Origin: an uncultured Nitrososphaerota archaeon
GTDB lineage: Archaea > Thermoproteota > Nitrososphaeria > Nitrososphaerales > Nitrosopumilaceae
Direction: 5' to 3'
Assembly: GCA_963824385.1 (NCBI GenBank)
Contig: CAWGPD010000002.1
Coordinates: 32,001-96,000 of the forward strand
Length of the DNA stretch: 64,000 bases
The first letter of the stretch is position 1, and each line of letters begins with the position of its first letter. The position numbers are program-made. Positions 42,001-45,000 of this stretch are shown one piece after another.

Positions 42001-45000
42001 CATTTCACCTGGACTTTCAGTTATCTGACCTTTGTTATTTCTAAGTAAATATCGGGATGCTAAAACTCGTAAGCAATTAAGATCGAATTTTTTTGCTACA
42101 CTATCAAGAGCCTTTGATTCTAGAACCTTCATTTTTTCTTCTCTAAGTCGTCTTCGTTCATGTCTATACAGGATGTACGCCTTTGCAATCTCTCCTAGTC
42201 CTTCCTCAATCAGAGTAGACTCTACCATATCTTGGACATCTTCTACGCTTGGTGCTTCTGAACCAGAAAATCCACGGTTGACAAGTTTTGTAAGAACATG
42301 ATTTGCAAGCTTGTCTGCTAGTCCATGATCTGATCTTCCGCAAGCTACGAGTGCTTTGTATATCGCGCTTGAAATTTTATCTCTTTGGAAATCTGATACT
42401 CGACCATCGCGTTTCTTTACTTGAAGGATCGAATTCTCTATTTGTGAAAAATCTGTCAACTTACTCCCCGTACCCCTATCAAATGGGAGTTAAATAAACA
42501 CTGCGGCAAAAAATAATTTTCTAAAGCTAAACTTTGGATCAATTTTGTTGACACCATTACGATTTTCATAGTATGAGATCACTTGAAGAATTACACATAA
42601 AAATTTAATCTACGCCTGAGATCAAATTTTCAGTTTAGCCCTTGGATCACAAATAACAGTTCGAAGAATTATTCATTAAAAATTCAAATAAAAGTTTAGT
42701 TTGATTGAAAAATTTTAATCTGATTATCAGTATTTCCTAAGGTGAGAGTTATGCAAGTATGTAAGGCGATTTGCATACTGAACATTTTTCGGCGATCTTT
42801 TCCTCTTTGAGACCACAGTTACTACATATGGGTACTTTTCTAATTGGTCTGAAAGATCCTAATAGATCACCTGCTTTTTCAATTGCTTTCTTAATTCCTG
42901 AAGAATCCATTGCGTCTGGGATCTTTAATTGAACTAGTAGTCCGCCGTTGAGTATCTTTGAGAAATAGTTTGATTCTACAATCTTTTCATTCTTAGGATT
43001 CATCTCTGTTATCTCAGAGGCATCAAGTACAATTCCTTCAGAATAGGACTCGCCCATGACATGTTGATTAATTGATGTCTTGCCATATTTTTCACCGTCA
43101 AGCGAGGAGAAACGGCTCGCTGCATCACTCTCAGTCATAGTTACGATAACATTATCTCCCATTTCCTTTCCTTTCTTTGTGGCTACTTCCATAGCAGTGT
43201 TTATCACTTTAGCCAGGATTTCGTGTCCAGCCTTGTTGTTTTCAAATCCTAAAATACCATAAACTGCCTCTTTGAGTCCTATTAGATTAACAACTAGAGT
43301 TACTGATCCCTTTTGCATATACTGAGTATTGTTTGCAAGAATTGGATTAAGACCACGTCTTGTTAGATCAGATATTTCCTTCTTTCTCAAAGACATGGCT
43401 GCAAGTGCTGGTTTCATCAATAGTGCAAGTCTTGCTCTGAAATAGGTTTCATCTTTGTTAGATTCAAAAGCCAATCTTGGCATATTGATTGATAGAGATT
43501 CTAAATTAATAGAGGTTGTTCCAACGTTCTTTGTATCTATTCGTGCCAAGCCTTTGTTAGATACCAAGCCTTTAGCAAACATAATGTGTCCTCCTAATGC
43601 AATTATATCTGCCAAAATTTCTGAATAATCACTTATCTTGGCTTTTTCATAATCAACTATCAATCCTATTGAAGGAATTGGTGTTGACTTTACATATTTT
43701 TTGTAGGCTTGAAGAATAGTATTAACTAATTTTGGTTCTGTTCCAATAGAAATTCTAAATGAAGTAAGTGTTCCATTCTTTCCGTATTTAGATCCTGTAG
43801 ATATTTTTGCAAAGCAGCTTGCAAGTTTTTCTTCAATTTCAGGTAAATTCTTGGAATATTTTTGTAATACAGCAACTAATCCGTCCATTATTACTTCTTG
43901 TGATGCTTCTTTTATGAGAAGACTTGTCAATAGAGACAGAGATGTGAAGAGATCATCTAGTGAATTTGGTGGTGATGTTCTTGTAACACCCAAGAATTTT
44001 CCTCGCAGATCAACACCATCCTCTATAAGTTCCTTAATGTTTACAAATATGGTATCTGGAAGAAGTGACCATAATCCAGCATTTGTAATATGAAGATCTC
44101 CTGAGAGATGAGAGTCAGCAACGTCCTTGGGTAATGTGTTTAAGACAAGATATTCACCAAATACTGTTTGTCCCGTTTTAAACAATAGACCCTCCACGCC
44201 ATTATGTATACCATCTACGTTGGTTAACAATTCATGAATATCATAGCCAGGTAATCCAAATCTTGCAAGTTTGTGCCTATAATCTTCGTGTCCTTGTTCC
44301 AAGAGGACAGAGTTAACCATCTCACGTATGAGTGAGGATGTAAGGTAAGATGTCTGGAATTTGTATATTCTATTCTCTACTTCCTCAGTTATCTTTTGAG
44401 CAAGTTCAAGTGGAAGGCTGCCTTCGCGAACCAGGGATTGGATAATTTTATGAGAGTTGAATTCTTCTATTGATTCATGTGAAGTTCGTACATACATTTT
44501 GCCACTTTCAATGATAGATCGCTCTTCAATCTGTCTTGCAAGACTTAGGACTAGTTTTCCCAAGTTAGTAATTGTGTATCTTCTTTCAGACTTGTTTAGA
44601 GCTACAAGAGATTGTCTTAGTAATTTTCTTAAATGATATGCAAACTTACCACTTTCCTTTTTTGATTTAAAGCCAGCTAGAGATTTTAGTTCAGAATAAG
44701 TAAGAGGTCCTTTTGAGTTTAAGATACGTAAAATATCAATTCTGTTTGGACTTGCCATAACAGAGAAAATCATTCTTACACGCTTTGATGCTGATTGTAA
44801 TATTCCACCACGTTTTGGATCTCCAAAGTCTTCACTTAGCTCCATGAAATTACCTAATTGGCATCGGTAATTAAGATTTTTGACTGATTTGATCTCTACG
44901 GAAGCTTTTTAGATCAGTTTTTCTGTACGTCTACACTAAATTCAGATGGAGATAGACTCTGCCCACATGAGGGACATTTACTGTTATACGGTCTCATCAC

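Follow-up and report, generated by a model that had tools for sequence, protein, structure and literature searches.

A winged-helix, ATP-cone protein with a dead NrdD-like body beside class II ribonucleotide reductase: a candidate archaeal counterpart of NrdR

We analysed a 64,000-nucleotide stretch of a contig from an uncultured archaeon of the Nitrosopumilaceae (the window), in which a gene for a 698-residue protein, here called R, occupies positions 42749..44845 (C2:74752-76845 on the contig). The positions given for this gene in the genome-wide survey's note already count along the window, and nothing similar lies at 10749..12845. All features described below lie on the minus strand. The open reading frame list, the translation, Pfam, and an AlphaFold2 model divide R into a winged helix-turn-helix, an ATP-cone, and a catalytically dead body resembling the class III ribonucleotide reductase (RNR) NrdD. 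Directly downstream, as the genome-wide survey's note had reported, is the gene of a B12-dependent class II RNR with an ATP-cone (nrdJ, 39801..42459; Pfam, NCBIfam, and sequence), present as two open reading frames at 40495..42459 and 39801..40481. The split is peculiar to the present assembly; it comes down to one extra base near 40499-40501, RNA-library contigs have one base less at this point, and the open frames of relatives span 880-930 amino acids. A spacer of 289 bp (42460..42748) separates R from nrdJ, and a 53-residue zinc-ribbon ORF (44914..45075) is located directly upstream of R. A pattern search found this small ORF in 20 of the 21 loci of the window's family, and its Pfam zinc-ribbon matches were weak and all below the cut-offs. 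The R gene is covered by contigs from four RNA-library runs at 90-99% identity, consistent with its transcription. None of the contigs listed bridged the spacer between R and nrdJ, and such contigs reveal neither transcript ends nor strand.

Pfam exactly reproduced the domain layout given in the survey's note, with DUF7347 at residues 26-100, HTH_20 at 30-82, ATP-cone at 117-189, and NRDD at 442-693 (model positions 275-529 of 562). The ArsR-like winged helix (residues 26-100, 44546..44770) was delimited from Pfam, the AlphaFold2 model, and the invariant columns. The N-terminus scored 40.8 bits with DUF7347 (cut-off 27.6) and 32.6 bits with HTH_20 (cut-off 27), while the NCBIfam model HTH_metalloreg gave only 23 bits versus 55. 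In the AlphaFold2 model (pLDDT 90.3, pTM 0.82) the region runs helix-helix-helix-helix-strand-strand-helix, from a helix at residues 21-30 to a strand at 81-92 and a helix at 94-113, with the putative recognition helix at about residues 62-77. The N-terminal 100 residues match regulators of the ArsR/SmtB type (HTH_20, HTH_5; DUF7347) and adopt a winged-helix fold whose C-terminal helix is long, whereas R differs from these regulators in its size, its fusion partner, and a sensing module that is the remnant of an RNR. A two-copy complex prediction for residues 15-200 scored 0.29 against a mark of 0.42, which counts neither for nor against pairing. The ATP-cone (residues 117-189, 44279..44497) scored 39.9 bits in Pfam (cut-off 25.8) and carries the motif VRTS, in contrast to KKRDG at the corresponding site of the adjacent NrdJ cone, so that nucleotide binding by the cone of R is uncertain.

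The cone is followed by a ten-stranded, NrdD-like barrel (residues ~200-670, 42836..44248; Pfam, Foldseek, and profile). R scored 85 bits with the NRDD model of Pfam and has a second, weak NRDD stretch corresponding to model positions 9-87. Searching the PDB with the single sequence gave only an E-value of 0.02 to NrdD, and a profile was required to reveal the relationship. Our profile of 24 orthologues hit 9d3x (1.2e-12), 4coi (5.4e-12), and 1h78 (1.8e-10), upholding the homology to solved NrdD chains claimed earlier. When the model was compared with known structures using Foldseek, class III RNRs matched over ~570-700 columns, the best being 9d3x_A (E 8.7e-20); the matches listed, to rank 35, were all class III RNRs with E-values from 1e-20 to 1e-12. 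Over the whole stretch that begins with the ATP-cone and ends with the zinc ribbon, R is homologous in sequence and fold to class III NrdD (structures of T4, T. maritima, P. copri, and S. thermophilus), and its nearest genuine relatives are archaeal NrdDs with a VRTS-type cone.

Unlike class III NrdD, R has an extra winged helix, is without the thiyl-radical cysteine, the glycyl-radical domain, and an activase, and scores far below the cut-off of the NrdD equivalog TIGR02487 (76.2 bits versus 326.35). In an alignment of the finger loop from 5 genuine NrdDs, 30 longer homologues (long forms), and 24 short forms, residues G432-L433 of R (43547..43552) aligned with the GC or CC of the genuine enzymes, placing leucine at the position of the thiyl-radical cysteine. 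In T4 NrdD, whose PMGCRSF segment paired with the long-form profile, we take this residue to be Cys290. Not one of the 24 orthologues has a cysteine at or beside the finger-loop position. Their only invariant cysteines are C674, C677, C688, and C691, none of them in the barrel; these form the C-terminal zinc ribbon (CxxC...CxxC, 42773..42826; invariant columns and C-terminal alignment), which is itself gone in some representatives (P0129-P0131, P0148, and P0149). The R chain stops 7 residues past the ribbon, and all 24 orthologues end soon after the last cysteine, so that the glycyl-radical domain is missing; genuine NrdDs continue past the ribbon through WSR[IV]TGYYQ. The best match to the activase NrdG in the genome scored 40.3 bits (cut-off 126). 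NrdG was above the cut-off in none of the 151 genomes of the order, a result of limited sensitivity for archaeal activases since at this threshold the model was also silent in archaeal control genomes. Because R has neither a thiyl-radical cysteine nor a glycyl-radical domain and no NrdG was found, it cannot be a class III reductase. The survey's note had come to this view on the same points, and all of them were confirmed. Public records that name R 'anaerobic ribonucleoside-triphosphate reductase' are mis-annotations.

R proved to be a core gene of the order Nitrososphaerales, present in 143 of 151 genomes, in 100 of the 102 high-quality ones, and in all 20 families. The family extends outside the order to Bathyarchaeia and, by automatic labels, to Asgard and DPANN lineages. 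The alignment of 24 sequences has 47 invariant columns, and 32 of them fall within residues 26-190, making the N-terminal module of winged helix and ATP-cone the best-conserved part of R, again in line with the earlier claim. The number attached to that claim, 76 invariant residues of 165, applied to the narrower sequence set used at the time and did not carry over to the 24 sequences. The densest run of invariant columns is the winged helix. R is under strong purifying selection.

Synteny was assessed in the 122 genomes of the order with coordinates for both genes, leaving out the unpublished G108. R adjoins the gene for the RNR large subunit in 112 of these genomes, representing 15 of the 20 families. 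The usual arrangement, seen in 108 genomes, has both genes on one strand, with the RNR gene 75-700 bp behind R; 4 genomes have the two genes adjacent in another orientation (divergent or convergent), and the remaining 10 have them on separate contigs. All ten ORFs downstream of R that we tested with Pfam encode RNR large subunits. Three different RNR architectures of class II/I-like type occur beside R (ATP-cone plus lgN, lgN only, and Ribonuc_red_2_N), and the adjacency is nearly absolute whichever of them is present.

The long forms in Bathyarchaeia keep a degenerate C-terminal tail. Of the 30 long forms aligned, 10 retain a glycine at the radical position, and one has GCRL. The VRTS cone is also found in genuine Bathyarchaeial NrdDs. 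At 27 of 80 Bathyarchaeial loci the long form immediately precedes the gene of a genuine class III NrdD, confirmed by Pfam at five loci with 480-540 bits. The R family is therefore tied to the RNR gene even where the class of RNR differs. No NrdD was located downstream of the long form at the other 53 loci, and in ten of these that we scanned the neighbours include pyrB, pyrI, and genes for HMG-CoA reductase and transporters.

We then analysed the DNA around R for candidate operators. An unbiased k-mer screen of 70 loci, weighted by family, returned GTCAA/TTGAC as the most enriched 5-mer in two regions, upstream of R (17.3 versus 6.7, z 5.3) and in the spacer between R and the RNR gene (28.6 versus 7.7, z 10). 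This is not a general intergenic word in the host genome, with 0.45 copies per 200 nt in intergenic regions and 0.47 genome-wide, and 63 of the 83 copies in spacers are oriented along the gene direction. The dyad GTCAA-N6-TTNAC occurred in 11 of 70 regions upstream of R and 15 of 66 spacers, covering 11 of 20 families. Shuffled sequences contained it in 0.1-0.2 cases on average (maximum 2), and the spacings N4, N5, N7, and N8 were found in 0-2 loci; the genomes are related and not independent, so these shuffle statistics overstate the significance. The strict dyad was absent from the window's own family, where N5 variants and TGATC arrays take its place, and from family f9, including a genus with convergent genes in which two GCTATACA-N4-TGTATAGC palindromes lie ahead of nrdJ. 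Nor was GTCAA enriched ahead of the long-form genes of Bathyarchaeia; their promoters have conserved elements of their own, one of which contains TTTTTTAAAC.

Two candidate operator variants are present in the window. The first, GTCAACAAAATTGATCC (42536..42552), is situated 93 nt ahead of the TTG start codon of nrdJ; the block is conserved in L011 and L012, and other genera of the family have related GTCAA-N5-TTGA blocks. The second, GTCAAAAATCTTAATTAC (44867..44884), is situated 39 nt ahead of the start codon of R, where it overlaps the probable BRE/TATA of this gene's promoter. The spacer sequence also contains a likely TATA/SD region near the nrdJ start and four copies of TGATC (42645-42649, 42620-42624, 42577-42581, and 42537-42541). 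The resulting GATC count of 4 compares with 0.82 in dinucleotide shuffles (p ~0.007), and ~2% of the 300-nt windows in the host genome have at least 4 GATC. Upstream of R, the stop codon of the 53-residue ORF falls inside a TGATC, and an extra TGATC (45090-45094) sits between a TATA-like box and the ATG of this ORF. The TGATC-rich stretches that the survey's note had described are real and limited to the window's family; upstream of R the count was 49 (9.8 expected), and in the spacers it was 53 (19.2 expected). We rejected TGATC/GATC as a universal operator, as family f4 showed no enrichment (3 versus ~2.7). TGATC stands as a family-specific feature and is possibly a GATCAA variant of the GTCAA half-site. 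A general excess of palindromes in the spacers was likewise rejected, perfect inverted repeats being present in 26 of 65 loci compared with a shuffle mean of 26.9; upstream of R there was a modest excess (37 of 69 loci; shuffle mean 26, maximum 34). Genome-wide, dyad patterns matched 13 distinct intergenic sites, and a weak search (first ~90 residues of the flanking ORFs, judged by eye) recognised no nucleotide or replication genes next to them. Other GTCAA clusters in the genome lie within seemingly frameshifted coding regions. The GTCAA element could instead be a specialised promoter that some other factor recognises, and the putative recognition helix of R, nearly invariant across lineages with differing elements, sits badly with lineage-specific operators.

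Overall, R is probably a nucleotide-responsive transcription factor for RNR genes, similar to NrdR in function and built differently. DNA binding, operator identity, ligand binding, and the direction of control are properties that we infer for R. The ancestor may have been an archaeal class III NrdD already bearing an ATP-cone; after duplication of the ancestral nrdD, one copy would have acquired an ArsR-like winged helix at its N-terminus and given up radical chemistry. In the present protein the ATP-cone, perhaps together with the barrel and the dimer scaffold, would sense the adenine-nucleotide or dNTP state, which would alter the conformation or oligomeric state of R. The winged helices would then bind or release AT-rich dyads at the promoters of the RNR gene and of R itself, for which GTCAA-N6-TTNAC and its lineage variants are the best candidate element. 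An element over BRE/TATA at R's own promoter would be expected to cause auto-repression in archaea.

The closest functional comparison is bacterial NrdR, which according to PMC9110341 reads ATP/dATP through its cone, controls RNR transcription, and is 'rare in archaea'. Within the order, the NrdR model TIGR00244 exceeded its cut-off in just 1 of 151 genomes. NrdR (zinc ribbon plus ATP-cone) and R each join an ATP-cone to a DNA-binding domain and are genetically tied to RNR genes, and R resembles NrdR further in having candidate sites at the RNR promoter and its own. However, NrdR has an N-terminal zinc-ribbon DNA-binding domain, whereas R has an ArsR-like winged helix in this position and a C-terminal, NrdD-homologous zinc ribbon. 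R also differs in the 500-residue dead NrdD barrel after the cone and in the cone motif (VRTS versus a KRDG-type motif). TIGR00244 did not match R, and its only match in the genome was the nrdJ cone at 19.3 bits. R and NrdR are independent inventions, and R is not a member of the NrdR family.

We considered three other roles for R. R could be a non-catalytic partner of the reductase protein (a pseudo-enzyme subunit, an allosteric modulator, or an assembly or scaffold factor) that uses its winged helix for protein contacts. The tight tandem of R and RNR is also compatible with co-expression of interacting proteins, the confidently folded NrdD barrel and probably the dimer scaffold are under selection, the Bathyarchaeial long form could pair with its adjacent genuine NrdD paralogue, and no universal operator was found. 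We nevertheless regard such a partner as unlikely, because the most conserved part of R is the winged helix, each gene has its own promoter-like region with spacers of 75-700 bp, the two genes are divergent or convergent in 4 genomes, and R would have had to stay the same while its partner changed from a class III enzyme to class II enzymes of several unrelated architectures. It seems similarly improbable that R is a DNA-binding regulator of a wider programme (replication, cell cycle, or nucleotide metabolism) or responds to a signal other than adenine nucleotides. The non-canonical ATP-cone and the many Bathyarchaeial loci without a downstream NrdD, with pyrB, pyrI, HMG-CoA reductase, and transporter genes among the neighbours scanned, would fit this role, but adjacency to RNR is nearly absolute inside the order and the genome-wide dyad matches, in the weak search described above, lacked replication and nucleotide genes. 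That R is still an enzyme whose NrdD barrel runs a non-radical or differently initiated reaction is very improbable: the barrel is conserved and keeps motifs common to genuine NrdD (e.g. INLPR and HLSGxIH), and some long forms have the radical-position glycine or, once, GCRL, yet the barrel is without any conserved cysteine, the short forms have no glycyl-radical domain, no activase was found, some members have lost the zinc ribbon, and the hosts are aerobic, conditions that destroy the glycyl radical of class III RNRs according to PMC3019208.

If R is a nucleotide-responsive regulator of RNR genes, a more far-reaching version is conceivable, and we offer it tentatively. The R family, derived from an ancient dead class III reductase and present in Nitrososphaerales, Bathyarchaeia, and probably Asgard and DPANN lineages, might be the master switch of dNTP supply that has long been missing in archaea. 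R might have kept both allosteric sensors of its enzyme ancestor, one for ATP/dATP in the ATP-cone and one for dNTP balance in the specificity site at the dimer interface, and read them out as promoter occupancy via the winged helix. Such a switch might have persisted when class II RNRs took the place of class III RNRs as ammonia oxidisers became aerobic, and might supply the activity-type feedback that is absent from many of their class II enzymes without a cone.

We found no published description of the R family in the literature searched, with subscription journals and RNRdb outside our reach, and the terms 'helix-turn-helix' and 'DNA-binding' are absent from PMC9669993 and PMC11226230. As far as we could find, R is a real NrdR-like functional analogue without description in print, the function being the one that we infer above.

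The control of RNR is textbook matter in bacteria, with NrdR, and in eukaryotes. In archaea, by contrast, NrdR is rare. If our interpretation is true, R would be a third home for the ATP-cone and would show cleanly how an enzyme can be turned into a transcription factor of its own pathway. Correcting the widespread mis-annotation matters as well, as aerobic ammonia oxidisers presently seem to own an 'anaerobic ribonucleotide reductase', which distorts metabolic reconstructions. R is a core gene of these globally important ammonia oxidisers and is therefore directly testable in cultured strains.

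R is a 698-aa protein encoded at window positions 42749..44845 (-), to which no offset of 32,000 applies, in the ORF list and its translation. A Pfam rerun returned the domain limits reported in the genome-wide survey's note: DUF7347 at residues 26-100, HTH_20 at 30-82, ATP-cone at 117-189 and NRDD at 442-693 (positions 275-529 of the 562 in the model). R reached 76 bits with the curated NrdD equivalog model, whose cut-off is 326, and its single sequence matched solved structures only weakly (E 0.02). A profile of 24 orthologues (30-71% identity) matched class III ribonucleotide reductases (RNRs), with E values of 1.2e-12 for 9d3x, 5.4e-12 for 4coi and 1.8e-10 for 1h78. 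We also obtained an AlphaFold2 model from 63 input sequences (pLDDT 90.3, pTM 0.82). Foldseek aligned it with class III reductase chains in all matches listed down to rank 35, over ~570-700 columns, and placed class I enzymes and other glycyl-radical enzymes far lower. Profile and Foldseek thus agree with the proposed NrdD homology of the body and, because their matches are class III reductases, the modelled protein is an NrdD from the ATP-cone through the zinc ribbon, with a winged helix in front. The predicted winged helix consists of helices 21-30, 33-45, 50-57 and 62-77, strands 81-92, and helix 94-113.

We aligned 24 short forms (R orthologues ending after the zinc ribbon) and 30 long forms (mostly Bathyarchaeial homologues with an extra C-terminal tail) with five genuine NrdD from Bathyarchaeial loci, whose genes cover the full NRDD model at 480-540 bits. 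All five NrdD have a QCCRL or QCCAY finger loop and a WSR[IV]TGYYQ motif beyond the zinc ribbon, and the profile alignment puts PMGCRSF of the T4 and S. thermophilus chains at the same finger-loop place. R has G432-L433 at the position of the finger-loop cysteine, and none of the 24 short forms has a cysteine at or beside it. All 24 end shortly past the last zinc-ribbon cysteine, and the four ribbon cysteines are the only ones invariant among the orthologues. The survey's statements that the thiyl-radical cysteine and the glycyl-radical domain are missing, and that no other cysteines are invariant, were therefore correct. Its claim that the activase NrdG is absent also held at the model's cut-off of 126 bits: the best match in the window's genome reached 40.3 bits, and none of 151 genomes of the order had a match above it, with a model that was also silent in archaeal control genomes, so that a divergent activase could escape. 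The loss of the cysteine and of the radical domain is independent of the sensitivity of this search, and R is almost certainly not an enzyme.

The winged helix and the ATP-cone had been described as the best-conserved parts, and 32 of the 47 columns invariant among the 24 orthologues do fall within residues 26-190 (19% of positions there versus 3% elsewhere). Helix 62-77 (ESGKFAYHLRKL) is almost the same even in the long forms. The barrel has the motifs LPxxVADxHLSGxIH, INLPRLAYE and RFxxLDxEKYG in common with true NrdD. Its high-confidence model indicates that the barrel is not decaying, and it must serve sensing, oligomerisation or both.

We detected R in 143 of the 151 genomes sampled from the order (142 of 150 without the unpublished G108), in 100 of 102 high-quality genomes and in all 20 families, as befits the core gene it was said to be. 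Directly downstream on the same strand, where the survey had placed it, lies nrdJ, a B12-dependent class II RNR with its own ATP-cone, in two ORFs (40495..42459 and 39801..40481). We searched the genomes for the NrdJ large subunit as well and compared its coordinates with those of R in the 122 that had both, leaving out G108. The RNR gene followed R in the same orientation after 75-700 bp in 108; the two were divergent in one (G038), convergent in three of one genus (G081, G064, G045) and on separate contigs, mostly at contig ends, in ten. In G073 they were not adjacent and R was apparently broken. When the ORF downstream of R from ten diverse families was analyzed with Pfam, it was a reductase large subunit in all ten, including G014, G001 and G018, where the NrdJ query had no match, and G017, counted above under separate contigs. 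Three architectures occurred: an ATP-cone with an all-alpha domain, an all-alpha domain without the cone, and a Ribonuc_red_2_N type class II enzyme. Open frames of 1150-1270 aa for the RNR large subunit beside R in L014 (G119), L135 (G011), G128, G138 and G026, with an Intein_splicing match in one, indicate that the reductases of several relatives likely contain inteins.

A genuine class III NrdD lies immediately downstream on the same strand in at least 27 of 80 Bathyarchaeial loci, in some cases with a glutaredoxin-like ORF in between; the count is a minimum, because the downstream sequence is shorter than 2.5 kb in 23 of the 80. At other long-form loci the neighbours include pyrB or pyrI. 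The association thus tracks the presence of a reductase gene and no single reductase family, a pattern that would be expected of a regulator. The adjacency could also mean that R is a fixed protein partner of the reductase, a reading hard to reconcile with neighbours of differing families. NrdR exceeded its cut-off in only one of the 151 genomes, a bin 88% complete with 4% contamination. A functional tie between R and RNR is very probable.

RNA-library contigs from four runs in four studies cover both R and nrdJ at 90-99% identity, which is compatible with transcription in nature, though DNA carry-over is possible and contigs give neither ends nor strand. The nrdJ frame breaks at 40495-40501, where '...SMIH*' is followed by 'TDCSNGMEPMF...' in another frame. 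Contigs from three runs have one base fewer at 40499-40501 (one bridging contig spans 1744 nt), and all close relatives have uninterrupted frames of 880-930 aa, the same-genus gene being 94% identical and 895 aa long. The split is thus due to an extra base peculiar to the assembly, by sequence comparison an assembly error or strain mutation and no natural split gene, and was ruled out as a feature of the system. Elsewhere in this genome, at C3:252838-254499 outside the window, two adjoining ORFs and a GTCAA-rich 'intergenic' stretch resemble one frameshift-broken gene, presumably topoisomerase IB-like. These apparent frameshifts and the 86% completeness suggest that the assembly carries indel errors. 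A third ATP-cone (C1:9771-9977, also outside the window; 38 bits) lies in a 306-aa frame that is neither RNR nor R. Directly upstream of R, a 53-aa ORF with a CxxC...CxxC zinc ribbon (44914-45075, -; all Pfam matches below cut-off) may be co-transcribed with it. Among 21 loci of the window's family, a pattern search found this ORF in 20; it detected none in other families. One TGATC holds its stop codon, and another lies between its TATA-like box and ATG.

We then considered possible operators. The 289-bp spacer between R and nrdJ (42460..42748) contains four GATC against 0.8 expected, with further copies upstream of R. In the window's family, 20 loci together had 49 GATC versus 9.8 expected upstream of R (~5-fold) and 53 versus 19.2 in the spacer (~2.8-fold). 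The TGATC stretches pointed out by the survey are therefore real and enriched in this family, but the excess is gone in the next family and is no more than a top-2% feature within this genome alone. We therefore added the same region from 40 more genomes, which cover the other families, and screened for all reverse-complement-collapsed 5- and 6-mers, weighted by family, against dinucleotide shuffles. GTCAA/TTGAC was the top 5-mer both upstream of R (z 5.3) and in the spacer (z 10), and is not simply common throughout the intergenic DNA of this genome. At least one copy was present in 45 of 66 spacers (15 of 18 families), and 63 of 83 copies had the same orientation as the gene. The spaced form GTCAA-N6-TTNAC occurred in 11 of 70 upstream regions and 15 of 66 spacers, across 11 of 20 families (shuffles, mean 0.1-0.2, maximum 2), versus 0-2 loci with N4, N5, N7 or N8 spacing. 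A number of copies read as perfect palindromes, either GGTCAA-N4/6-TTGACC or its everted form. Upstream of R the dyad stands 20-60 nt ahead of the start codon, over an AT-rich box that must presumably act as the TATA box. Over the TATA region is the classic position of an archaeal repressor.

The strict dyad was absent from the window's family (which has N5 spacing and TTGA[ACT]), from family f9 and from the convergent genus. Its nearest equivalents in the window are GTCAACAAAATTGATCC (42536..42552), 93 nt upstream of the nrdJ start and kept in the two closest genera, and GTCAAAAATCTTAATTAC (44867..44884), 39 nt upstream of the R start. In the convergent genus, two perfect GCTATACA-N4-TGTATAGC palindromes lie ~90 nt apart upstream of nrdJ (L161 and L162, of G064 and G045). 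Bathyarchaeia showed no GTCAA enrichment. There (L040-L119), a conserved CTTTAATTTTTTAAAC-like element that contains TTTTTTAAAC stands ~35-40 nt ahead of the long-form start and is almost specific to this promoter: 35 of 80 loci have it within 80 nt upstream, and these make up 35 of the 49 TTTTTTAAAC occurrences counted in 834 kb. Six further copies, in the context GTACAnTTTTTTAAACAATTTT, stand directly past the long-form stop (L050, L052, L057, L059, L064, L104). The Bathyarchaeial nrdD/glutaredoxin promoter has TATAC-rich repeats, of TATACA/TGTATA type ahead of nrdD in L080 and L103. Perfect inverted repeats in general were not in excess in spacers, and dyad matches elsewhere in this genome indicated no regulon. 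A near-invariant putative recognition helix alongside elements that differ between lineages allows several readings: R may actually contact a degenerate AT-rich TGTnnA-type dyad that all these elements share, recognition may depend on DNA shape, or another factor may use the elements. GTCAA-N6-TTNAC is the best current candidate, not an established operator.

Among 1.8 billion representative proteins, 1138 relatives of R were found at E ≤0.001 and 187 at E ≤1e-30. In 20 more distant ones, DUF7347 was present in all and ATP-cone plus NRDD in 19. Many relatives are long forms: they measure 720-800 aa, match NRDD over its full length with up to 307 bits and continue past the zinc ribbon in a tail. 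Of the 30 aligned, 10 retain the radical glycine, 20 have it replaced, and one still has the finger-loop cysteine (GCRL of P0180). The 80 best genome loci of long forms are nearly all titled Bathyarchaeia, Bathyarchaeota or Hecatellales; one, L081 (DATKLC010000012.1), is filed under the bacterial bin Krumholzibacteriaceae and is probably a mis-binned archaeal contig. One cluster member is labelled Thorarchaeota, and automatic ESM Atlas labels suggest, as a lead only, that Promethearchaeota and Nanobdellota have this architecture too. In one short-form sub-clade (P0129, P0130, P0131, P0148, P0149) the zinc ribbon is also gone, so the ribbon is dispensable for the role of the family. G027 has a second winged-helix fragment (C1:1091142-1091393; residues 16-99, 92% identical, two stop codons) 6 kb from its intact R; this fragment is a pseudogene left behind by a local duplication.

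Genuine Bathyarchaeial NrdDs and the R family share an unusual N-terminal cone signature, VRTS...F..KI...LT.PLIRE. In the simplest history, a cone-bearing archaeal NrdD would have been duplicated and one copy fused to a winged helix, losing the finger-loop cysteine; the ammonia-oxidiser order would then have lost the radical domain as well, and a few lineages the zinc ribbon. By descent R is an NrdD, but tests for three defining catalytic features of that enzyme were negative. NrdR is closest functionally, although R has only the ATP-cone of its defining sequence features. The searchable literature held no description of this architecture, and in public databases the protein goes under the names 'anaerobic ribonucleoside-triphosphate reductase', 'ArsR family transcriptional regulator' or 'helix-turn-helix domain-containing protein'. 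According to a 2024 paper (PMC11226230), the ATP-cone essentially does not occur outside RNRs and NrdR. Overall, R is rather likely to be a DNA-binding regulator of RNR genes, a role that is supported but unproven, and there is an even chance that it senses adenine nucleotides via its cone.
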